A stretch of 64,000 nt of DNA. Origin: Escherichia phage CMS-2020a. Of the stretch, positions 1,628 through 59,494 are shown one piece after another (position 1 is the first letter of the stretch; the number at the start of each line of letters is the position of its first letter). Where the stretch lies: the sequence record CP053388.1, one strand, 5' to 3'. The notes under the pieces were generated by a model. That model searched no databases. It was not told the DNA's origin and was given only the letters and a program-made list of their open reading frames with translations. The position numbers were made by a program, and so were the translations under genes.

Positions 1628-1643
1628 GACGACTATGAAATAT

Positions 1644-1665
1644 GACTGCGGAACGTGCCGCAGTC
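1644..1665. terminator. hairpin GACTGCGG-N6-CCGCAGTC between convergent genes
   Basis: perfect 8-bp inverted repeat between end of iteron array and stop of minus-strand ORF at 1675. Confidence 0.4.
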
Positions 1666-1674
1666 AGTTTGCAT

Positions 1675-1887
1675 TTAGTGTATTTTCTTTAACAGACCCC
1701 AAAGTGTTCCGGCTTTTGTAGTCAGTTTTCCTGTTTCTGGATCGTACATACGCCATTCACGCCGCTGGTGGACGATATACCCATCTTCACGTTCCAGACG
1801 CTCAAGAATGCCAGGCTGCTTGAAACCCTTAGCACGCCAGTAGCCGCTTGTTTTCTCGATTTCCAGACCTGCCAGTGTTAATGCCAT
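1675..1887 (-). CDS. hypothetical protein (70 aa)
   Basis: ORF whose stop region abuts start of next gene; last gene of leftward operon. Confidence 0.4.
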   Translation of the reverse strand: MALTLAGLEIEKTSGYWRAKGFKQPGILERLEREDGYIVHQRREWRMYDPETGKLTTKAGTLWGLLKKIH

Positions 1888-2222
1888 TACCCAACCTCCT
1901 TGCAGTCATCGAAAAGGTAGCTTTGCTGAGAAGCGTGAACGCCATAGAAGCCCTTGTATTTGTTGTATACGAAGTGGTCTTCTCCGACGCCGGTTAATTT
2001 GCCATTACGATTTGTGAGATATGGGGATGACAACACTCGATCGTCACGCACAACATAGAACTGGTCGCCGCTGTCTACGACCATCGCTCCATATGGTGCT
2101 TTTATGACGTCGGTAAGAGCGCCATTCTTAACGTCGGCTACAGACATTTCACACTGATAAACAGTGGTGTCGGCCACAACGATCGAAGAAAGAAACAACA
2201 GCGCGAATGGGATGGTCTTCAT
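1887..2222 (-). CDS. secreted/periplasmic hypothetical protein (111 aa)
   Basis: N-terminal signal-peptide-like segment MKTIPFALLFLSSIVVA; start overlaps stop of upstream small ORF (ATGA). Confidence 0.5.
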   Translation of the reverse strand: MKTIPFALLFLSSIVVADTTVYQCEMSVADVKNGALTDVIKAPYGAMVVDSGDQFYVVRDDRVLSSPYLTNRNGKLTGVGEDHFVYNKYKGFYGVHASQQSYLFDDCKEVG

Positions 2223-2398
2223 GCTGCCACCTCTTTGATTACATCAAATGCTGAATTAAATACGAGCACGATAGCCAAAGCGTTTATGACTACGTCGTGC
2301 ACCGGGGAAAAGACTTTACGAATGACACCAGTGAAAATGCAGTCGATGACAAAAGCTATTGAAACGATGAGTAACAAGTATTCAATAAAAATCTTCAT
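2219..2398 (-). CDS. small membrane protein (59 aa), not in supplied ORF track
   Basis: hand-translated MKIFIEYLLLIVSIAFVIDCIFTGV...; hydrophobic; stop TGA overlaps ATG of 1887..2222. Confidence 0.35.
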   Translation of the reverse strand: MKIFIEYLLLIVSIAFVIDCIFTGVIRKVFSPVHDVVINALAIVLVFNSAFDVIKEVAA

Positions 2399-2437
2399 GA
2401 TAGGTAGATACTAACTTATATAAACTTTACTGTAAAC

Positions 2438-2713
2438 TCACTCAAAAGTGCTGATGCTTAAAATACGCTCAAGATGTTCAGCATCTTCATTACTGATTTG
2501 TTGAGTCTCTTCTACGTACCAACAGTTGCCGTTATGCCAACAAACACCATCATCATCAACCATCACTGAATCAGCGTCATGACCTGTATATTCAACAAGA
2601 GTACGCTGGATCAGCGCGTCAGTTTCTTCATCGTTAAGGCCATCGACTTTGACCATAAAAAGCGGAAACACGTCATAGACAGTGCTGGTAACGATTCGAA
2701 CTAAAACTCTCAT
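2438..2713 (-). CDS. hypothetical acidic protein (91 aa)
   Basis: ORF with RBS-like sequence upstream; D/E-rich. Confidence 0.45.
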   Translation of the reverse strand: MRVLVRIVTSTVYDVFPLFMVKVDGLNDEETDALIQRTLVEYTGHDADSVMVDDDGVCWHNGNCWYVEETQQISNEDAEHLERILSISTFE

Positions 2714-2768
2714 GTGTTTTTCCTTTTGTGGTTAGTGTTTACTTATTTTGTTAGTTATGAATAGGCGA

Positions 2769-3194
2769 TCAATCTTCTTGTTTAGGGAAAAACTGTTCAA
2801 TAACTCTGTCAACGGCTGTGTCTATATGGAGTAGATGCCACACAACCATATCTTTGCTTCCCATGCCTTGTGTGAATATCACGTCATACTTACGCCATGC
2901 GCAGTGGAACCAATATGCTGAGTCATCAATTGGTAAATCCTCTCCCGCCTCTTTGAAGTATTTCAGCAGCATTGCCTGCTCTGCCGTTGGCGTTGGACCT
3001 ATTTCCTGAGCGTACATACGGATGAATCGCTGCCAGTCTGTCTCGTCGGGGGTTGGATCTGGTGGGGTCATTTCTGCGATAGCGTTTCGTAGCTGATGCG
3101 CCCAATCAGGTTCAGGAAAGCCTTTTGCTACTTCATCATCAATAACATCCAGAGCCACGTTTGCGGCATCGTAGAGTTTCTTAATAACTGTCAT
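2769..3194 (-). CDS. hypothetical acidic protein (141 aa)
   Basis: ORF; AAACAAATTGTTT palindrome about 20 bp upstream of its start. Confidence 0.45.
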   Translation of the reverse strand: MTVIKKLYDAANVALDVIDDEVAKGFPEPDWAHQLRNAIAEMTPPDPTPDETDWQRFIRMYAQEIGPTPTAEQAMLLKYFKEAGEDLPIDDSAYWFHCAWRKYDVIFTQGMGSKDMVVWHLLHIDTAVDRVIEQFFPKQED

Positions 3195-3244
3195 GTTTTC
3201 TTATCCTTTTAAACAAATTGTTTTCTTAATAAGATAATTTCGAT

Positions 3245-3278
3245 AAAAAAGGCGTCCAACTGGACGCCTGAACTTTTT
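3245..3278 (-). terminator. intrinsic terminator GGCGTCC-AACT-GGACGCC flanked by A-run and T-run
   Basis: hairpin plus T-tract (on minus strand) directly after stop of 3286..4116. Confidence 0.6.
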
Positions 3279-3285
3279 AGGGGAG

Positions 3286-4116
3286 TTATTTCACTGTAAT
3301 GAAAGGAGTGTTAGCCCCTTGAGTCATGTACTGCGGTAACTGGCCATTCCATTTATTGATGGCTTCCAGCTCCATAACGTTCGGGTTTTGACGCAGAGCT
3401 TCACCGCGCAGACGAATGGCGTCTGCTTCTGCTTGCGCACGAGCACGGATAGCATCAGCTTCACCATTAGCCTGTTCACGTAGCATATTCGCCTCAGCTT
3501 TACGTTGTTCAACTTCCTGCTGACGTTGCAGAGTACGCTGGTTAGCCGTTACTTTGGCGTTGATAGATTCAATGACGGTTTTTGGGTAATCAGGCTTTCC
3601 AACCCATGACAGGCTCAGTACCTCAATACCAACCGGAGACATCTCTTTCTGAATATCTTTCAGTGCGTTGTCCAGCAATTGCGCCTTACCACCGTCGATA
3701 AATGAGTCAGTGGTCATACGGCTGGCCAAACGGTTTAGAGAGTCGGCAATTTTCTGACGCAGATCTGATTCGGTGATATCGTCTACGCCTTTGCGATAGG
3801 TCTGGAACACCGTCGTTACCTTGTCACGATTAACCAGATACGCAACGCCAATTTTGTGACCAATAGCAGTACCGTCACTCATCTGGAATGTGAACGGTTC
3901 GTCGTAGGTCTTCATTTGTTTGAAGGTCGGGAATACGTAAAGTTCGGTGTTAAGACCTGTCCATTGGCGACCAACGCCAACCACTTCACCGATCCCTTTG
4001 TCTTCACCTAATTTGTTTACTTTGATGCCAACGTATCCAGGCTCCACGCGATCACAGCCAGTAAGACCCATTGTGCAAATAGCCGCCAGAGCAACTGCAA
4101 GTAAACCTTTCTTCAT
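3286..4116 (-). CDS. SPFH/band-7 (stomatin/prohibitin-like) domain lipoprotein
   Basis: signal peptide with lipobox LTGC; C-terminal Ala/Glu/Arg-rich coiled-coil typical of SPFH proteins; domain call from recalled family features. Confidence 0.55.
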   Translation of the reverse strand: MKKGLLAVALAAICTMGLTGCDRVEPGYVGIKVNKLGEDKGIGEVVGVGRQWTGLNTELYVFPTFKQMKTYDEPFTFQMSDGTAIGHKIGVAYLVNRDKVTTVFQTYRKGVDDITESDLRQKIADSLNRLASRMTTDSFIDGGKAQLLDNALKDIQKEMSPVGIEVLSLSWVGKPDYPKTVIESINAKVTANQRTLQRQQEVEQRKAEANMLREQANGEADAIRARAQAEADAIRLRGEALRQNPNVMELEAINKWNGQLPQYMTQGANTPFITVK

Positions 4117-4119
4117 TAC

Positions 4120-4320
4120 TTATTTCCCCTTTGCTTTGATTAATGAGTTGATAAACTTACGACCAGCAATAAGACCGATTACAGGAGCACCAAAACCAAC
4201 GATAACTCCAAACATGACGGCTAAATCACTCTTGGTGGAAATCAGCGACGGAACCAGTAAACCGTAGATGAGAGCCACTGAAACGCCTGTGGCTACTGCC
4301 AATAGATAGATTTTGATCAT
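4120..4320 (-). CDS. small two-helix membrane protein (66 aa)
   Basis: two hydrophobic segments; 3 bp upstream of SPFH gene. Confidence 0.5.
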   Translation of the reverse strand: MIKIYLLAVATGVSVALIYGLLVPSLISTKSDLAVMFGVIVGFGAPVIGLIAGRKFINSLIKAKGK

Positions 4321-4383
4321 GTGTTTTCCTATGTGGTTGTTATGCGAAAATAATAAGTAAGTACTTATCTATTTTCAAGAGAT

Positions 4384-4407
4384 AAAAAAGGCGTCCTGTG
4401 GACGCCT
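4384..4407 (-). terminator. intrinsic terminator AGGCGTCC-TGT-GGACGCCT plus T-run
   Basis: hairpin and T-tract immediately after stop of RecA-like gene. Confidence 0.6.
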
Positions 4408-4412
4408 TGTGT

Positions 4413-5486
4413 TTACTCTTCTACTGACTCGGTGGGGTTGTCTTTTGCTCTTCGGTCGTCGATTGCCTGCAAAGCCGCAATGATTTCAGCCAGTGGCTTC
4501 TCCCGATACATCTCGACGATCTGCGATTTGGTGTATTTCTTGTCACCAATTTCAACTCGCCCGCTGGCGTTCTTTGGCAGGTATCCTTCTTCCAGCATGT
4601 ACTCGACGAGCGATTCGATAACGTCGAGGCCACGAGTAGGATCGAAGTAGAATTTCCAGGTGCATTTGCCATACGGTGGTGCAACTTTGTTTTTGATGCA
4701 TTCTGCGCCTACGTCCTGGCCGATCTTCTCTTTACCATCCTTCATCACCGATGCACCAAGACGGATACGTACAGAAGCGTAGAACTTCGGTGAATCTCCA
4801 CCTGGCGACGTAGTAGGGTCGCCAAACATTACACCGATTTTTGTGCGAACCTGATTCAAGAAGATGATGCAGGCGTTGTATTTGCGTGCCCACAAAGCCA
4901 GAGTAGGGAAGTTCGCACTTGTCGCACGAGCCAGTGCCGTATTGTCGTTCATGTTTAGCTGATCTTTGTCTTTGGCAGTGCCTTCAGCCATCTTTTCGAA
5001 CTTCTCGGCTTTGGAGTTCGGAACCATAGACGCAAGTGAGTCAGCCACGATACAGATAGGTGCTGATTCAGGAATAAGCTCTTCATCACGTACCAATTTA
5101 AGAATTGTGCCGATCAACTCTACAGAGTCTTCGAAGGTATCAGGCTGCTTGTATACCCACTGACCGTCATCCTCATCTGCGTTCAGGCCATTGGCTACAG
5201 CCAGGCCAACGTCAAAACTGTTTTCATGATCGAGGAATACCGCCAGACCATCTTGTTTTTGAGCGGAGATCATCGCTGCTGTTGCAAGGAACGTTTTCCC
5301 TGCACTTGGAGGACCGAATACTTCGACGATACGACCACATGGGAAGCCGCCATCGTAACGACCAGAAATAGCTTTGTTTAACGGTGGAAAGCCTGTATCA
5401 ATCCAATGAGTTACTTTCTGAATTTCGTCGTTGCTACCGATTTTCTTTTTCAGAGCAAGTGCCAGTGCGGATTTTCCTTTTGCCAT
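4413..5486 (-). CDS. RecA/UvsX-family recombinase ATPase
   Basis: Walker A GPPSAGKT, RecA-like core spacing. Confidence 0.7.
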   Translation of the reverse strand: MAKGKSALALALKKKIGSNDEIQKVTHWIDTGFPPLNKAISGRYDGGFPCGRIVEVFGPPSAGKTFLATAAMISAQKQDGLAVFLDHENSFDVGLAVANGLNADEDDGQWVYKQPDTFEDSVELIGTILKLVRDEELIPESAPICIVADSLASMVPNSKAEKFEKMAEGTAKDKDQLNMNDNTALARATSANFPTLALWARKYNACIIFLNQVRTKIGVMFGDPTTSPGGDSPKFYASVRIRLGASVMKDGKEKIGQDVGAECIKNKVAPPYGKCTWKFYFDPTRGLDVIESLVEYMLEEGYLPKNASGRVEIGDKKYTKSQIVEMYREKPLAEIIAALQAIDDRRAKDNPTESVEE

Positions 5487-6759: not shown

Positions 6760-7788
6760 TTACAGAGAGTCCAGCTCTCTCAGTAGGTCATCCAGACCTT
6801 CATCTTCCGTCGCAGATGCGGCTGCTACAGATGTCGCTGCGACTGCTTCAGACTCTTTGACTGATACTGCAACGGCAGCGGGACTTGCTTCTGGTTTAAA
6901 TTCAGTTTCAACGGCACGGAGGATTTCTTCATCAACCAGACTGGTTGGTTCAGAAGCTGGGGTATGAGCGGTAGCTACAGCAGTCGCACCCTCCGTATGA
7001 CCAGTGACAGAGCCAAATCCAGGTAGTGCCGCAGCCGATGTTTTCGCGGTTGAGGAAATTGCTGGTGCAGATGCTGCGGCAGTTGGTGCAGCGATGCCAA
7101 TCAGACGACCCATAGTGCGAACTGTCGACAGAAGACGAGTTTCATCAGCCTGATTTGCGTATGCGATCAGATCATGCTGGGTATTCCAGAATTTATCTTC
7201 GATATCGCCTTTGTAGACTTTACGCTTAGGCGAGACGTCATATTTGGTATCGCGACCAGAGCCAGTACGTTTAATCAGGAATGCGTAGCCTTCCTCTTTG
7301 CTCAGTGGATTGCCGATATCATCAGCGATGTCTTCGGTGATTGCTTTGCAGATATCATCGAATACAGTAGACGGCAGCTCGATTAACTGGCATTTCTCAG
7401 CATCTGCGAAATCCTCACGAGCAGAAAGAATGCCGTTGACCAGGTAGCGAGGAGTGGCACGCATTTGACCGATGCGTTCTTCCATTGCTTTGTTACCCTT
7501 GTGACGAGCGCGACCTTCCATCACCATTTCGCATAGCTGACAAGCGCGACCGTGAGTATGTTGCTCACAAATATAAGCGTTGGTTGCTTCTTTACCTTCC
7601 TCGTTCTGATACTTAACGTAGTGCATACCGAAAGTCTGGAAGAACTTACCGTTTGGGTCGTCTTTATTCGGGAAGATGCGGATATAGTTGACGCCGTCTT
7701 TTAAGCGAGTCAGATCAACGTTGTTACCACGTTTGGCGGCAATGTCTTCACGAGTTTTGTTAAGCAAATCAAGTAATGTCTTAGACAT
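6760..7788 (-). CDS. ssDNA-binding protein, T4 gp32-like
   Basis: N-terminal YIRIFPNKDD resembling recalled gp32 motif, Cys/His zinc-site cluster CEQHTHGRACQLC, acidic C-terminal tail DEGLDDLLRELDSL. Confidence 0.65.
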   Translation of the reverse strand: MSKTLLDLLNKTREDIAAKRGNNVDLTRLKDGVNYIRIFPNKDDPNGKFFQTFGMHYVKYQNEEGKEATNAYICEQHTHGRACQLCEMVMEGRARHKGNKAMEERIGQMRATPRYLVNGILSAREDFADAEKCQLIELPSTVFDDICKAITEDIADDIGNPLSKEEGYAFLIKRTGSGRDTKYDVSPKRKVYKGDIEDKFWNTQHDLIAYANQADETRLLSTVRTMGRLIGIAAPTAAASAPAISSTAKTSAAALPGFGSVTGHTEGATAVATAHTPASEPTSLVDEEILRAVETEFKPEASPAAVAVSVKESEAVAATSVAAASATEDEGLDDLLRELDSL

Positions 7789-13385: not shown

Positions 13386-13480
13386 GCGTTTTTCCTTTGT
13401 TCTCTAATGAGCGTTCAACTTCTTATATAAATATATCATCATCTATCGTAAGTGGTTACTTATCATTAAGGCTGTTTTGT

Positions 13481-15900: not shown

Positions 15901-16151
15901 TCAATCAATCCATTCTAACTTATACTATGGTAAGGAATACTACTAAAATTTATATCAATACTGAATACATTCATATCATATACAAGTTAATTTTCTTACC
16001 TGTTTTGGGCTAATTTTTCTCCGTGCAATGGCCTTTAACCGGTCTTTTAAGTGCCTATCGAAAAAAATGATAATAGCTTTACAACCCTAACCTTTGATGT
16101 AATATCGGTAAGCACTTACCAGTGAGAATTGAACGCGCAAAGGTTGTAACA

Positions 16152-16538
16152 ATGTCTGACAACAAGATTGAATTTATAGAAAGTCGCTATGCTGCTTTTA
16201 TCGCAGGGCTGATTGAATCCTCACCTATGAGTCAGGCCCAAATAGCCAGACTTATTGGTTATAAAAATGCCAACAACCTTTCTTTAATTAAAAGTGGCAA
16301 AATTCCATTGCCTATCGATAAGGTTCGTCCGTTGGCGCTGGCGCTGGGTATTGAGCCAAGTCGTCTTATGATGATGGTGCTGGAAGAACGCCAACCTGAA
16401 CTCGCAGCATTTTTATACAAAGAAGGCACCGCTCCTCTTAACGAGGACGAAAAACAGGTTCTTGCTGCATATAACGAGCGATTCGGTAAAGAGAAAGGCG
16501 CATCACAAAAGGTTGTTGAGGCTATAAAGTCTCTATGA
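16152..16538 (+). CDS. XRE-family helix-turn-helix transcriptional regulator (candidate repressor)
   Basis: HTH segment SQAQIARLIGYKNANNLSLIKSGK; start placed at ATG 16152 with AAGG RBS (track ORF starts at GTG 16122). Confidence 0.65.
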   Translation: MSDNKIEFIESRYAAFIAGLIESSPMSQAQIARLIGYKNANNLSLIKSGKIPLPIDKVRPLALALGIEPSRLMMMVLEERQPELAAFLYKEGTAPLNEDEKQVLAAYNERFGKEKGASQKVVEAIKSL

Positions 16539-33399: not shown

Positions 33400-33461
33400 G
33401 AATCGTCAAATCGGGATGGCGGTTTTATATCATAAAACGCCCACACTTGGTAGGTAAGTAC

Positions 33462-34244
33462 TTACACATGAGCGCCGTAAATTGCCCCAGCTTTAGTCCA
33501 TGTAGGCGCGTTGCCAGTTACGGCTTTACCAGCTGCTCCGCCGTTATATTCTGTACCGTTACCTTGAGTATTACATCTTCCTCCAGCAGCACCGACATTA
33601 CCACCCGAACCGCCTGTATATGCACTAAGAGACCCCTCACCAACAGATCCTTTACCAGGAGCGGAAATAGTACCAGCAGTTGCACCGGAACTCATATGAG
33701 AGGAAGACCCACCAGCACCGAATGGGCGACCACCGCCACCACCAAATATTAGTTTACCCCTGTTACCGCCGCCACCGCCGCCGCCACCTCCAGCGATTGC
33801 ACCATTATTCGTAATACGCAAGCGTGTACCGATGCCATTATTAATTGCGTTACCACCAGCAGCACCGGCAGCGTTACTACCACCATTGCCACCGCGTCCA
33901 TAGACAGTCACACCTGCGTTGATTACAAGGCTGATATAAGAGTTGGTAAGTGAACTCGGGAAATCTAAACATGGCACGCCGCTACTGGACGACACCAGAT
34001 CCCCTGTAATGGTAACAACGACTGGCGTCGCCCCCTGGGATTTTAAATAGTTGATCAGTGTGTCTTTGTTGTAGTTATGATTCGCACCGATGCTGTAATG
34101 AATTTCCTTAGAACGACCTGCTAACTGAGACATATTCCCAGCAGCAGACAATTGCACCGCCGTTCGAGCTGCACTCATCCATCTCTGGCCTGTCACACTG
34201 ACAGCCGAAGACCCAATCCAACCGGGAACACCGACAATTGGCAC
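33462..34244 (-). CDS. glycine-rich protein downstream of side tail fibre (fibre-associated or receptor-binding accessory)
   Basis: poly-Gly runs; start reassigned to GTG 34244 with AAGGAG RBS (track ORF starts 34301). Confidence 0.45.
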   Translation of the reverse strand: MPIVGVPGWIGSSAVSVTGQRWMSAARTAVQLSAAGNMSQLAGRSKEIHYSIGANHNYNKDTLINYLKSQGATPVVVTITGDLVSSSSGVPCLDFPSSLTNSYISLVINAGVTVYGRGGNGGSNAAGAAGGNAINNGIGTRLRITNNGAIAGGGGGGGGGNRGKLIFGGGGGRPFGAGGSSSHMSSGATAGTISAPGKGSVGEGSLSAYTGGSGGNVGAAGGRCNTQGNGTEYNGGAAGKAVTGNAPTWTKAGAIYGAHV

Positions 34245-39041: not shown

Positions 39042-39134
39042 GTTGAATATGCTCCTTGATTTGGCGGGCTATCCTTGCCCGCCATTAAGTAAATACTTAC
39101 CTATTTTTACCGATATAAAATTTTTTTTCCACCA

Positions 39135-56109: not shown

Positions 56110-56985
56110 TTAAATTTTTACATTGGTCAGTGCAGCGATAGCCTTATCGTGCTTATTCGCCAGAGAGCAGTACCACTTCACACGGGTACGTACTGCGTCT
56201 TTGTTCTGTACAGTACCAATGTTTTCAACAACGATACCTGCGTTGTCGCCGCCATACAGACCAGTAACGCCGTTCTCTTCTGACAGATGCAGGCAGTAGA
56301 TGCTTGCTTTGCCAGCATCGGTCGGAATGAAGTCGTTTACGATAAACGGAACGCCGTTATGGCACAGCATCGGACGACCGAAGTTCTCCATCATGATTTC
56401 AGACGGACCTACGTTTACTGTACGCAGCAGCGCACGGTAAGCACGCAGGTGCTCTGAACGCATCATGATGCAGTCAGCACCAAGATCTTTCACCGCATCG
56501 ACCAGTTCGTCGAACATGGAGAAAGTCATAGATGCACCGGCGATATCGATCTTCTGATCTGCGTGCATCAGGCGTGGAATGCCGTCAAACGCCTTGTTGT
56601 TAGTGGTGGAGTCGCCAACAATCAGATTGCGACGGAAGGCACGAGCCAGACCTTTGACTTTCTGACGAACCTGGATAGCCAGCTGGTTGTTGGTATCAGC
56701 CATAGTGGTAGCCAGGAATTTGTCGACGTCAACGTCGCCAGCCAGAATGCGCAGCTTCGCAACTTTCTCTTCGAAGGTTGCTGCACCTTCGGTGATGGTG
56801 TCGTTCACATCAATGAAAGTAGCTTCGCTCAGCGTTTTTTCACGGTTGTACAGATATGCCTTTGAATTAATTTTCATAAAAGGCAGGATGGCAAACAGGT
56901 CATCGCGATCGATGATAGTTTCGATCACACCCTGTTCAAGTTCGTTGTTAGACAGCTTTTCAGCTTCTTCACGCAGTAATGGCAT
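56110..56985 (-). CDS. major capsid protein candidate
   Basis: 291 aa gene immediately after scaffolding gene. Confidence 0.6.
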   Translation of the reverse strand: MPLLREEAEKLSNNELEQGVIETIIDRDDLFAILPFMKINSKAYLYNREKTLSEATFIDVNDTITEGAATFEEKVAKLRILAGDVDVDKFLATTMADTNNQLAIQVRQKVKGLARAFRRNLIVGDSTTNNKAFDGIPRLMHADQKIDIAGASMTFSMFDELVDAVKDLGADCIMMRSEHLRAYRALLRTVNVGPSEIMMENFGRPMLCHNGVPFIVNDFIPTDAGKASIYCLHLSEENGVTGLYGGDNAGIVVENIGTVQNKDAVRTRVKWYCSLANKHDKAIAALTNVKI

Positions 56986-57010: not shown

Positions 57011-57898
57011 TTACTTAAGTCCAATTTTCCCCAGACCGGAGGCCAACTTATCCATAGTCGACTTGTTCTTCGGTTGGGATATTGTGTAGGTCGATTTGGA
57101 ATGTGAGCCTACACCCTGCTTGGCTTCGCTACGCATCAATGCGTCAGCTTCCGGATCTGCCCGCACAATGCGTTCAATCGCGGATTCAAACGGCAACGGC
57201 TTACCTTCACCGTCAACCAGAACAGCTCGTTCTTTATGACCTGCCGGTTTGTCATAACCCACTACGCTACCGTCTTCACCCACTTCAAAATGAGAACCGT
57301 AGATCACGCGGGCTTTTGCCGGGGTCATCAGAACTTTGTCACGTAGGAAGAGAGAGTTACTGAAGGAAGCGCCCACGGTCATCTCGACTAATTGAGATTT
57401 CAGTGATGCGTTTTCACTTTCCAGTGCTGTATAACGTTCGTCACGCTGTGCCAGCTCTGCCTGGTGTGCTTCGATCATCTGTTTTTTAACAGCATCGAAC
57501 TCACCACGACGCTCCAGTTCAGCTTGCTCCGCCTCACGACGTGCATTTTCTGCGGCCTGTTCAGCTTCTAAAAGCTGGCGAGCACGCGCCGGGTCGATAT
57601 CACCGTACTGAGCAAGCTGATCGGCCAATGTGCGCTCTTTCTCTTTGCGCTTCATGTTCTCCTTCAGCAGTTCAGCACCAGCTTTCTTGGTTTTACGAAG
57701 TTCGGCCAGTAACTCTTCCTGAGTCATGCCAGCGTATTCGTCATCGCCCTTCGGCTGCTCTTTTTGTTCACCCTGTTTGTCAGGATCTTGTGTGCTCTGC
57801 TCATTATCAGCAGCTACACCGCCAGCGCCTCCACGCTCATGCGCTTCAGCGACATCCATCAGACCACGACGGGCCAAAAGCATTTGCCACAGATTCAT
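57011..57898 (-). CDS. scaffolding protein candidate
   Basis: charged coiled-coil 295 aa between portal and capsid genes. Confidence 0.55.
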   Translation of the reverse strand: MNLWQMLLARRGLMDVAEAHERGGAGGVAADNEQSTQDPDKQGEQKEQPKGDDEYAGMTQEELLAELRKTKKAGAELLKENMKRKEKERTLADQLAQYGDIDPARARQLLEAEQAAENARREAEQAELERRGEFDAVKKQMIEAHQAELAQRDERYTALESENASLKSQLVEMTVGASFSNSLFLRDKVLMTPAKARVIYGSHFEVGEDGSVVGYDKPAGHKERAVLVDGEGKPLPFESAIERIVRADPEADALMRSEAKQGVGSHSKSTYTISQPKNKSTMDKLASGLGKIGLK

Positions 57899-57919: not shown

Positions 57920-59494
57920 TCACTCGTTCTCTTGAGTAGATGAGTCCCCATTCCCTCGGGGTTGATCTTGCCCGCTTTCTTGGGCTGCACCACGATAATA
58001 AGTAAGTACTGACTTATTTTCAAGGGTATTTAGATCATTTTTTGGAGGAAAATTCAAGAGATCTTTATCAAATTCCTTTTTCATCGCCTCAGTAATGTTC
58101 GGGAAAATCTTCTCAATAAGCATTTCCATCTGGTGACGACGTACAGAGTCCGGTGCCTGAAGTAATGACAGTTTCTCGGCAACAGAAAATTCATCAGTAA
58201 GGCCACGAATATCGAAACTTTCTGGATACGCAATTAAAGAGTGGTCTTCGTCCAGATCTGCCCCCATCCATTTCGCAACCAGTAGCATGATTTGGCGTTC
58301 AGCCCTTTCCAGACGCTCTGCTTTTGTGACAAGCAAGCTATTTACACGCTGGAAGTCATACATTTTTGCGGCACCAGATGAATTATCGATTCCCTGTGCG
58401 TTGTCCTGCTTCGTTCGCTCACCAGCTACACCAACTGAATGGTAGATTTCGTTAATCACCGTCTTAATCGTAGTGATGATCATCTGAGCTTGTTTCGGGT
58501 CTGGTGACAGATAAAACGGCTGGTTTCCACCTTCAGAATCGTAGGTGAAGACTCGCTTTGTGCCCATTTCAAGCACTTTAGTGTGGTTTTCATCACCAGG
58601 TAAAAGCGACTGTACCGGTATAGCCAACTGGCTAAATGTCTGATCCTGAATAATGGCATCAAGGTTTGACAGATAGTTTGCAACCGCACGATCAAGATAA
58701 GCGATATCATCGATCAACGATGGGCTGAAATACGGTGATTCACTTTCTCCAATACAATCAACAGGAAACACAGGAACTACGCCGAGATTATGCTCACCGC
58801 TATCCTCTAAAATAACTTTTGCCTGACGGCGACCTGCTCCACCAGCGCCCTTCTTCACTTCCTCACGGAACAGATACCACTCGTTTTGTGTCCACAGACG
58901 ATAACGTTGGTATTCCTGACCTGTAGAAGTAAAAGGATCTGCGTCATCACGAGCGACTTCCACAATTAACGCCCACAACATATTCCCGTCGTCGTCCCAT
59001 GCCACATCCAGCATTTGCTGAGGTGAAATCCAGTAGGCGTAGGCGCGAGCATCTTTCTTTTTCTCGTCAGCTACTGACTCAACATCACCACTCATCGTGC
59101 TATCGACAACAACCCATATGCGACCGTAAATAGACGACTGCAAATCAATAGCGGCCATAAATGAGTCAATAGAGGCATTCTGGCGAGTCGCACGTTTCCA
59201 GAAATTGCGGATCTGCTCTGGTGCCTCTTCGATATTTCTATGAATGTCTTCTTTAAAGAGATATTTGTTGATGAGGTTTACCACCTCACGAGTGTGGTTG
59301 AAGCGATAAGCACGTTCAACTCGCTCCTTAAACTCCTGATCTCCCTCTTTAAAGTAACGAAAGATATTGTCTGTAAACCAACCACGCCCGCCAGCGTAAG
59401 TGCTGGCGAGGAAGTCCCAATGTTCTTTTTTCTTTTCGTATTCCGGGTGGCGTCGCGCCACCAGATCCTTAATTTGTTTGTCGTTCAATTCCAT
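57920..59494 (-). CDS. portal protein
   Basis: 524 aa directly after terminase large subunit. Confidence 0.7.
   Translation of the reverse strand: MELNDKQIKDLVARRHPEYEKKKEHWDFLASTYAGGRGWFTDNIFRYFKEGDQEFKERVERAYRFNHTREVVNLINKYLFKEDIHRNIEEAPEQIRNFWKRATRQNASIDSFMAAIDLQSSIYGRIWVVVDSTMSGDVESVADEKKKDARAYAYWISPQQMLDVAWDDDGNMLWALIVEVARDDADPFTSTGQEYQRYRLWTQNEWYLFREEVKKGAGGAGRRQAKVILEDSGEHNLGVVPVFPVDCIGESESPYFSPSLIDDIAYLDRAVANYLSNLDAIIQDQTFSQLAIPVQSLLPGDENHTKVLEMGTKRVFTYDSEGGNQPFYLSPDPKQAQMIITTIKTVINEIYHSVGVAGERTKQDNAQGIDNSSGAAKMYDFQRVNSLLVTKAERLERAERQIMLLVAKWMGADLDEDHSLIAYPESFDIRGLTDEFSVAEKLSLLQAPDSVRRHQMEMLIEKIFPNITEAMKKEFDKDLLNFPPKNDLNTLENKSVLTYYRGAAQESGQDQPRGNGDSSTQENE

Follow-up and report, generated by a model that had tools for sequence, protein, structure and literature searches.

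A two-gene cassette for an SPFH lipoprotein and its probable two-helix membrane partner in SSU5-like phage-plasmids

Members of the SPFH superfamily (prohibitin, stomatin, flotillin, HflK/C) are now taken to form cages at membranes, and phage genome papers repeatedly flag the role of phage SPFH genes as unexplained. No functional study of SPFH proteins from phages turned up in our literature searches, whether in superinfection exclusion, in anti-phage defence or in phage-plasmids. Here we describe an SPFH lipoprotein gene, and the gene for a small membrane protein that precedes it, on the minus strand of a 64,000-nucleotide (nt) stretch of Escherichia phage CMS-2020a (sequence record CP053388.1), which is referred to below as the window. 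The two genes form a self-contained cassette. On balance, we find it somewhat easier to believe than to doubt that they encode a periplasm-facing SPFH assembly of the inner membrane, with a partner of two transmembrane (TM) helices, which is switched on with the lytic genes and organises or protects the inner membrane.

Among described systems, HflK/HflC (7vhq, 7wi3, 9cz2) is the closest in structure. Like the phage protein, HflK and HflC have an SPFH domain with a long wall helix after it and then a second, short helix (E ~1e-14), and they are anchored in the inner membrane with a periplasmic SPFH domain, as is predicted for the phage protein. However, they share ~16-18% identity with it, form a heterodimeric pair where the phage has one SPFH gene, and carry an N-terminal TM helix in place of the phage lipid anchor, while the phage version is phage-borne and has a putative dedicated two-TM partner. 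The prohibitin PHB1/2 and erlin1/2 cages (8rrh, 9o9z, 9vvj) have the same monomer architecture, including an 'NP...LE..' segment after the long helix (Foldseek E ~1e-13). Their SPFH domain faces away from the cytoplasm, as predicted here, but they are eukaryotic hetero-oligomers with 15-17% identity to the phage protein. We know of no comparable small partner of prohibitin or erlin. The SPFH domain of QmcA, by contrast with the predicted periplasm-facing domain of the phage protein, faces the cytoplasm. In their two-gene organisation, with an SPFH gene and a gene for a membrane partner, QmcA-YbbJ (8z5g) and PH1511/PH1510 resemble the phage pair. In this NfeD type the pairing is known from the reported PH1510-PH1511 interaction and the solved QmcA-YbbJ complex, whereas in the phage type it is indicated by gene fusions. 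The phage partner consists of two helices only, with no room for the C-terminal beta-barrel of NfeD.

The window is an SSU5-like phage-plasmid, with nucleotide identities of 97% to Escherichia phage PhiR41_1, 96% to Cyrano (pLF82) and ~75% to Salmonella phage SSU5. Reading along the minus strand, the stop codon of recA is followed by a terminator (4408-4388), a promoter (4378-4350), the gene for a 66-amino-acid (aa) protein, the SPFH gene and a second terminator (3269-3250). The features of the cassette, and two distant sites that bear on it, are as follows.

4388..4408, minus strand: intrinsic terminator after recA, the upstream cassette boundary (terminator scan and RNA fold)
4350..4378, minus strand: σ70-type promoter (promoter scan)
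4120..4320, minus strand: 66-aa two-TM protein, the putative partner, PHROG 1130 (isoelectric point (pI) 10.2, two hydrophobic segments)
3286..4116, minus strand: 276-aa SPFH/band-7 lipoprotein, PHROG 200 (Pfam Band_7, AlphaFold2, Foldseek)
3250..3269, minus strand: intrinsic terminator 17 nt past the SPFH stop codon, the downstream cassette boundary
57995..58023, minus strand: second exact copy of the 29-base-pair (bp) promoter with its candidate operator, upstream of the scaffold-like and major capsid genes
16108..16119, no strand assigned: palindrome GTAAGCACTTAC, candidate operator, just upstream of a helix-turn-helix (HTH) repressor gene (16122-16538)

The initial annotation, made from the sequence alone, had read the 3286-4116 product as an SPFH/band-7-like lipoprotein that carries a lipobox and a long coiled coil, and this was upheld, the coiled-coil segment being a single long helix in the model. 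Pfam Band_7 (PF01145) matched residues 23-209 with 106.2 bits against a cut-off of 23.6 (E 2.6e-30). An AlphaFold2 model built with 31 homologues (predicted local distance difference test, pLDDT, 79) showed a beta-rich SPFH domain (~residues 23-178) with strands in 21-95 and 164-176, a continuous helix of 65 residues (179-243), a short helix (245-255) and a C-terminal tail of low confidence. When this model was compared with the PDB using Foldseek, the matches ranged from E 1e-11 to 1e-14; HflC/HflK were best (E 2.5e-14), prohibitin and erlin followed at ~1e-13, and stomatin, flotillin and the vault protein were also found. The top matches (E 2.5e-14 to 3e-13) are the cage formers HflK/HflC, prohibitin and erlin, whose SPFH domains all point away from the cytoplasm. 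Six residues of the C-terminal tail were invariant or nearly so in the 31 homologues (W256, G258, P261, M264, G267 and P271). The tail is conserved yet of low confidence in the monomer model, a combination compatible with a role between subunits. The gene is under purifying selection, its ratio of nonsynonymous to synonymous substitution rates (dN/dS) against SSU5 being 0.027, near that of RecA (0.018).

The N-terminus of the protein reads MKKGLLAVALAAICTMGLTG/C-D, the slash marking the predicted cleavage site, and comprises a signal peptide and the lipobox LTGC (L18-T-G-C21) with Asp22 at position +2. In the alignment of 31 enterobacterial homologues the lipobox Cys was conserved in at least 90% of the sequences and position +2 was Asp in 29 and Glu in the other two; among distant non-enterobacterial SPFH relatives position +2 was variable. 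Asp at +2 is the classical inner-membrane retention (Lol-avoidance) signal in Enterobacterales. A location in the inner membrane with an outward-facing SPFH domain is also consistent with the order of segments in fusion proteins described below (2TM-linker-hydrophobic segment-SPFH).

Since its closest structures, HflK/HflC-FtsH and prohibitin, regulate membrane AAA proteases, and its predicted orientation is that of HflK/C, the phage protein might join or compete with the host HflK/C cage round FtsH and so tune the choice between lysis and lysogeny or the stability of phage proteins. Control of lambda CII by HflK/C-FtsH is established. We nevertheless regard such mimicry as quite improbable. 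The protein scored far under the NCBIfam equivalog cut-offs (HflC TIGR01932, 30.2 against 134.4 bits; HflK TIGR01933, 18.7 against 159.4), it is encoded by a single SPFH gene next to a two-TM partner where HflK and HflC form a pair, and the SPFH family occurs in virulent phages, which make no lysogeny decision. Tandem paralogous SPFH genes as in HflK/HflC were not found in any of the 104 loci examined, each of which had one SPFH gene. Identity as an HflK/HflC orthologue was ruled out by the same equivalog scores.

The 66-aa protein had been described as a small two-TM protein in the place usually held by an NfeD-like partner. It does have two hydrophobic segments, and the idea of a conserved partner stood, while nothing NfeD-like was found by any test run. 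Loci with SPFH relatives were collected from viral contigs, reference genomes, phage records and E. coli genomes. In 100 of the 104 loci with enough upstream sequence, a small two-TM open reading frame (ORF) of 45-125 aa ended between -25 and +35 nt from the SPFH start. These loci held 42 distinct partner sequences, 40 of which carried a motif of the P-x-[LM]-[IV]-S type; in the window's protein the motif is P-x-L-I-S-x-x-S-D and lies in the predicted periplasmic loop. Even where SPFH identity falls to 32-46% the pairing was kept, as seen in Sutterella, Luteibacter, Dyella and a Lachnospiraceae genome. The four exceptions were two IS1-like insertions, one decaying copy in Symbiopectobacterium and one different single-TM neighbour in Pseudomonas phage TL; three of them are disrupted or decayed copies and not real absences. 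The IS1-like element splits the partner and SPFH genes in Shigella flexneri and E. coli chromosomes (loci L089 and L090, 3027-4001).

The two proteins were also found joined. At least 12 in-frame fusions of a two-TM module with SPFH were present among the best 150 representatives of 50%-identity clusters, with the module N-terminal, and there was one with the module C-terminal; a close enterobacterial fusion is P0021. Partner and SPFH genes are separated by 3 nt from stop to start in the window and overlap in most other contexts. The partner homologues listed were 58-89 aa long. In an alignment of 19 partners G38 was invariant and P24 and S28 were nearly so, all in the loop between the helices. 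The window's protein is basic (pI 10.2), its positive charges cluster at the C-terminus, and its predicted topology is N-in/C-in. From the fusion order and the positive-inside rule, the partner loop and the SPFH domain are both likely to be periplasmic. Compared with SSU5, amino-acid changes have accumulated 7-fold faster in the partner than in the SPFH protein.

Pfam gave no match for the window's 66-aa protein, NfeD was absent from the 25 Pfam families most matched by 19 partner homologues (E up to 1), and a partner profile had no match in the PDB, including YbbJ of the QmcA-YbbJ complex. Without a Pfam or PDB match, and too short, the protein is ruled out as an NfeD. The synteny and the fusions, as judged from sequence, point to a genuine and dedicated SPFH partner of another kind.

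Both boundaries of the cassette are marked by strong intrinsic terminators. The upstream one has the stem AAGGCGUCC/GGACGCCUU followed by U6 (-14.7 kcal/mol, z -6.1), and the downstream one, also with U6 (-15.1 kcal/mol, z -4.8), has the stem GGCGUCC/GGACGCC, the same as upstream. The downstream terminator was found in 46 loci, every one of them SSU5-like. The cassette promoter (TTGAAA, 17 nt, TATTAT) agrees with the consensus at 10 of 12 positions, and its pattern, with variable positions wild-carded, matched exactly at this position in 32 SSU5-like loci; it is conserved better than the neighbouring coding sequence. Both terminators and the promoter are kept in Cyrano and SSU5, although the 66-aa protein is only 61-71% identical there. 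The pair is a self-contained two-gene cassette in this lineage. The P2-like phage P88 and a P1-like plasmid have no dedicated promoter and terminators around the SPFH pair, so autonomy is a feature of the SSU5 lineage and is ruled out as a general property of the module.

The 29-bp promoter (TTGAAAAT..AGTACTTACTTATTAT) occurs exactly twice in the window (4350-4378 and 57995-58023), where no second copy would be expected by chance (0 expected). The other copy stands upstream of a 295-aa scaffold-like gene (57011-57898) and the major capsid gene (56110-56985), and the duplicate is also present in Cyrano and SSU5, upstream of CYRAN_4 and SSU5_004. Because the cassette has the same promoter as the scaffold and major capsid genes, it is most likely repressed in the lysogen and induced in the lytic cycle.

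Within the spacer of the cassette promoter lies a palindrome of operator type, ATAAGTACTTAC (4357-4368). There are seven sites of the form GTAAG-N2-CTTAC in the window against 1.16 expected. Besides those in the two promoter copies, they lie at 16108-16119, 33454-33465, 13448-13459, 39089-39100 and 7638-7649, and the palindrome immediately upstream of the HTH repressor gene has the same position in Cyrano. These sites may be dispersed operators of one regulator, and they recall the scattered C1 operators of P1.

The initial annotation treated the cassette as part of the last genes of a leftward operon, with four further products. These and the other neighbouring features are as follows.

2769..3194, minus strand: 141-aa acidic protein, Pfam DUF7238, outside the SPFH cassette (pI 4.5 (4.52), net charge -13)
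2438..2713, minus strand: 91-aa acidic protein (pI 4.2 (4.17), net charge -14)
2408..2436, minus strand: promoter-like site, start of a third unit (promoter scan: TTTACA, 17 nt, TAGTAT)
2219..2398, minus strand: 59-aa hydrophobic membrane protein (grand average of hydropathy 1.56)
1887..2222, minus strand: 111-aa secreted protein (Sec signal peptide ...SSIVVA/DTT, two Cys residues)
1675..1887, minus strand: 70-aa basic 'Cra-like' protein, PHROG 804, absent from the initial list
1643..1666, minus strand: hairpin closing the leftward gene run, beside the repA iterons (-15.4 kcal/mol, z -5.3)

All six ORFs listed initially were present on the minus strand at the coordinates given for them. Each had a PHROG family match (E 1e-26 to 1e-108) and dN/dS against SSU5 was 0.03-0.10 where dS was measurable, so they are real genes and not chance ORFs. 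The gene run does not end at 1887, as had been thought, but extends through the Cra-like gene to the hairpin at 1643-1666.

Transcript levels were taken from published RNA sequencing (RNA-seq) of E. coli LF82 carrying Cyrano (PMC9928086, Table S1). They are given as mean log2(FPKM+5), where FPKM stands for fragments per kilobase per million reads and 2.32 means no reads, in the order lysogeny broth (LB) / medium 1 h / medium 6 h / macrophage 1 h / macrophage 6 h.

RecA: 3.3 / 4.0 / 4.2 / 3.6 / 4.1
66-aa gene (CYRAN_56): 2.3 / 4.9 / 3.3 / 4.3 / 7.7
SPFH gene (CYRAN_57): 3.7 / 5.1 / 4.9 / 5.5 / 7.3
DUF7238 gene: 2.5 / 3.4 / 3.0 / 2.9 / 4.1
91-aa gene: 3.2 / 4.1 / 4.1 / 5.6 / 5.0
59-aa gene: 2.3 / 4.3 / 3.3 / 7.0 / 8.6
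secreted-protein gene: 2.5 / 4.7 / 3.1 / 6.2 / 8.4
Cra-like gene: 3.7 / 5.4 / 6.3 / 7.2 / 8.9

CYRAN_56 and CYRAN_57 were at or near the detection floor in LB and reached log2 7.3-7.7 in macrophages at 6 h. The flanking RecA and DUF7238 genes were low throughout (~4.1 in macrophages at 6 h), DUF7238 being flat. Among 72 other tabulated genes, the major capsid gene had the profile closest to that of CYRAN_56 (r 0.95, smallest distance). The shared promoter and the capsid-like profile together point to a regulator-controlled lytic unit; a constitutive lysogenic-conversion factor is less likely.

The same data bear on the layout of the whole stretch. Steps in the Cyrano transcript coincided with the predicted terminator and promoter boundaries and amounted to 3-5 log2 units between neighbouring genes. 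The predicted signals and the RNA-seq divide the stretch into at least three units, contrary to the reading as the end of one leftward operon. That reading would make the seven genes from 4320 to 1675 the distal part of a single early operon, an envelope-modifying set whose acidic proteins (pI 4.2-4.5) are DNA-mimic anti-restriction proteins. The genes do lie tightly packed on one strand, their synteny is kept across E. coli/Salmonella-type SSU5-like elements, and four of the seven products are membrane-associated or exported. Against this stand the two strong terminators, the two internal promoters and the transcript steps. The 66-aa and SPFH genes are also the only ones that travel together across other phage types, and the DUF7238 protein had no fold or sequence match to a known anti-restriction protein. 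Furthermore, the SSU5-like Klebsiella phage pJN2-26 (locus L108, 3440-4700) keeps the secreted-protein and Cra-like genes while lacking the SPFH pair, both acidic genes and the 59-aa gene. The single-operon reading is therefore largely refuted and we give it very little credence. In pJN2-26 the slot is filled by two genes on the opposite strand, one of which has a weak match to a Crp-like HTH. Its gene content rules out the SPFH pair as a core component of all SSU5-like elements.

Relatives of the SPFH protein were found in 372 of 50,697 phage records, hits among viral contigs numbered 476, and the library of representatives contained 195 SPFH clusters at E up to 1e-30. The carriers included Shiga toxin 2 (Stx2) and phiP27 prophages, the P2-like phage P88 and P1-like phage-plasmids. 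Other carriers were virulent N4-like and LUZ24-like phages, ~145-kb myoviruses and jumbo, phiCbK-like, Lak and crAss-like phages. In two virulent phages that were examined, N4-like S6 and LUZ24-like TL, the SPFH gene is found close to the left genome end, with non-structural genes around it. That many of the carriers are strictly virulent favours a function in the infection itself. A copy was present in 768 of 5,426 complete E. coli genomes (14%), split about evenly between plasmids and chromosomes. The protein variant P0005, which has Tyr in place of the lipobox Cys, was present on 175 contigs.

In P1-like phage-plasmids the SPFH pair fills a slot flanked by transfer RNA genes, where it replaces plp-upl-tciABC. 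Equivalence with P1 upl-plp was ruled out, as plp is a 378-nt gene on the other strand. In a comparison of the P1-like plasmid NZ_CP058750.1 (L101, 3005-4885) with P1 (L104, 11349-13009), the partner gene was seen to be unannotated in RefSeq.

In some SSU5-like elements ~2.1 kb of extra cargo lies between the SPFH terminator and DUF7238 (L006, 4927-6949; L011, L029 and L030). It encodes ORFs of 274 aa (with a DUF1281_C/Api92-like domain), 246 aa and 129 aa. This junction is an insertion hotspot.

The distribution and the expression data also bear on whether the cassette is a moron, that is, a gene set expressed from its own promoter in the lysogen, at least when the host environment imposes stress, that alters the inner membrane and so blocks incoming phage DNA or aids survival in macrophages. 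Much of its layout is typical of lambdoid morons. It is bracketed by its own promoter and terminators, it stands between backbone genes in a variable slot between recA and the Cra-like gene (with the extra cargo of L006 and no pair in pJN2-26), and in P2-like, P1-like and Stx phages, too, the SPFH pair is found in accessory slots. The inner membrane and periplasm, its predicted site, are where T4 Imm/Sp, HK97 gp15 and P22 SieA act. As in T4 Imm/Sp-type exclusion, the pair combines a small two-TM inner-membrane protein with a membrane-anchored periplasmic protein and is carried by both virulent and temperate phages. However, no sequence or family match to that type was found, and here the periplasmic component is an SPFH scaffold of 276 aa. 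In phage PhiSH19 the SPFH gene has, 205 nt upstream of it, a gene with a superinfection-exclusion annotation. PM0222, an HflK/C-like protein from a Pasteurella prophage and a possible member of the same family, is reported as a virulence factor that occurs in outer-membrane vesicles (PMC9872710). The 7-fold faster change of the partner could reflect an arms race, and expression rose strongly inside macrophages without detected Cyrano virions (PMC9928086).

We nonetheless consider a moron of this kind unlikely. The cassette differs from morons in lacking detectable expression in the LB-grown Cyrano lysogen and in having a promoter duplicated at the capsid operon, which points to lytic control; transcription in the lysogen independent of the lytic programme was not seen for the pair in the Cyrano data. 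The authors of that study did not include the pair among the lysogen-expressed (moron) genes (PMC9928086). The expression of the cassette tracks the capsid gene, its SPFH gene is under selection as strong as that on RecA, and relatives are widespread among strictly virulent phages whose receptors and injection machines are unrelated. Superinfection exclusion in particular loses weight because the pair is silent in the lysogen grown in LB and occurs in many phages that are strictly virulent. PADLOC gave no meaningful match for any of the eight proteins tested, and no match to an exclusion-annotated PHROG or Pfam family was found, the PHROG labels being 'lipoprotein', 'membrane protein' or unknown. 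A known defence system was thus rejected as a candidate.

The reading that we prefer is thus a lytic-cycle membrane assembly. The SPFH protein would be a scaffold of the prohibitin or HflK-C type, tethered to the inner membrane by its N-terminal lipid and facing the periplasm. The 66-aa protein would sit beside it as a two-helix inner-membrane partner, its conserved loop on the same, periplasmic side as the SPFH domain. By analogy with solved SPFH complexes, the SPFH subunits should form a ring or cage held together by the long helix and the conserved C-terminal tail, which would fence off a patch of inner membrane holding the partner. In the lysogen the cassette would be kept off by a phage regulator, probably the HTH repressor, and it would come on with the lytic-cycle genes. 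Given this lytic-cycle switching, its most likely job is to organise or protect the host inner membrane during phage development. Under the stress of infection it might preserve membrane integrity or serve the quality control of membrane proteins; alternatively, it might govern passage across the membrane.

Several points weigh against this reading. The common E. coli variants P0002 and P0005 have Tyr for the lipobox Cys, with the Asp kept, which would mean anchoring by an uncleaved signal sequence or different processing in those variants. The Arg that follows Asp at +2 may weaken Lol avoidance, and some sorting to the outer membrane is possible. The candidate-operator palindrome could serve a regulator other than the HTH repressor, and the signals around the pair are absent from P88 and the P1-like plasmid, as described above. 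The RNA-seq comes from a relative, Cyrano, with two replicates per condition, and values for a gene of 201 nt lie near the detection floor. Moreover, residence in macrophages does not amount to a clean induction of the prophage, and no Cyrano virions were found there by the authors (PMC9928086).

A bolder proposal is that the two-TM mini-protein and the periplasm-facing SPFH lipoprotein represent a distinct new class of SPFH-partner pair alongside SPFH-NfeD and HflK/C, mainly phage-borne, which builds a private inner-membrane compartment in the lytic cycle. We put this forward tentatively and would sooner doubt than adopt it. Such a compartment might be used, for example, in the control of FtsH-type quality control, in holin triggering or in DNA entry. 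If the pair does form a phage-specific inner-membrane compartment, this would be a new route by which phages manipulate the host envelope and a minimal model for SPFH-client interactions. If it is merely a backbone gene pair, annotations such as 'serine protease', 'lipoprotein' or 'hypothetical' can be corrected to 'SPFH lipoprotein + cognate 2-TM partner', and SSU5-like phage-plasmids gain a corrected operon map. In either case the locus is a compact and tractable example, with a defined partner, a predicted topology, a promoter and candidate operator shared with the capsid genes, and expression data in a clinical E. coli strain.

What was initially observed here is confirmed, and its interpretation is partly supported. 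The object of interest is narrower than first described, being a two-gene module and not a set of seven genes, and it is also broader, since the module is phage-wide and has a non-NfeD partner.

The five genes downstream of the cassette are separate SSU5-backbone genes, the DUF7238 and 91-aa genes being followed by a translationally coupled trio (59-aa, 111-aa and Cra-like) under its own promoter. For the first four products, the description as a pair of acidic proteins followed by a small membrane protein and a secreted one was borne out by charge, hydropathy and the signal peptide. The five genes do not form one co-acting envelope-modifying set with the SPFH pair, which alone travels together across phages.

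Both acidic proteins are small and strongly acidic, as DNA mimics are (net -14 in 91 aa, net -13 in 141 aa). Beyond this charge, nothing supported the suggestion that they are DNA mimics; no family match to such proteins was found for either, nor a fold match for the 141-aa protein. The 141-aa protein matched DUF7238 in Pfam (E 5e-38), and its AlphaFold2 model was all-alpha with seven helices (pLDDT 77). No fold match in the PDB was better than E 1.9, and no known anti-restriction protein was related to DUF7238 in the Pfam and PDB fold searches. The domain occurs on its own in T4-like and ~145-kb virulent phages. The 91-aa protein was found in SSU5-like elements only within the phage collection, and a PHROG of unknown function was its sole family match.

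The promoter-like site at 2436-2408 ends 9 nt before the ATG of the 59-aa gene and has been kept in SSU5-like loci that are divergent; in Cyrano, transcript abundance rises in a step here. The 59-aa gene lacks a Shine-Dalgarno sequence, which suggests a leaderless or nearly leaderless mRNA. Its product has two helices (~residues 4-25 and 36-53, by direct reading), and the gene was seen in SSU5-like loci only. A PhoP box in this promoter, which might have accounted for the induction in macrophages, was considered and rejected, as the half-sites are spaced by 12 nt and not 11 and the second half-site is not conserved.

The start of the 111-aa gene overlaps the stop of the 59-aa gene (ATGA), and the Cra-like gene in turn overlaps the stop of the secreted-protein gene. 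Within the phage collection the 111-aa protein was found only in SSU5-like elements. A tblastn search with the Cra-like protein recovered SSU5-like phages only and no P1 record, and the label 'P1 Cra' was thus not reproduced. In Cyrano the trio (CYRAN_60-62) ranked 1, 2 and 15 among the first 73 genes for induction in macrophages and was already up at 1 h. Its expression followed that of the integrase, HicAB and the gene that diverges from the repressor (r 0.97-0.99).

The leftward gene run ends against an iteron array. repA (Rep3 family) lies at the start of the window, and downstream of it the iteron TATGCTGTCAGCGGT is present in ~14 copies in two clusters (1094-1642), and the last copy abuts the run-ending hairpin. 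The array presumably serves the plasmid prophage as its origin or for copy control. On the other side of the cassette, recA is 1,074 nt long in the window (4413-5486) and 2,340 nt long in Cyrano and several other SSU5-like elements (for example L001, 6740-9079), and a LAGLIDADG homing endonuclease is annotated in the longer form in RefSeq. The difference looks like a presence/absence polymorphism of an intein or homing endonuclease.

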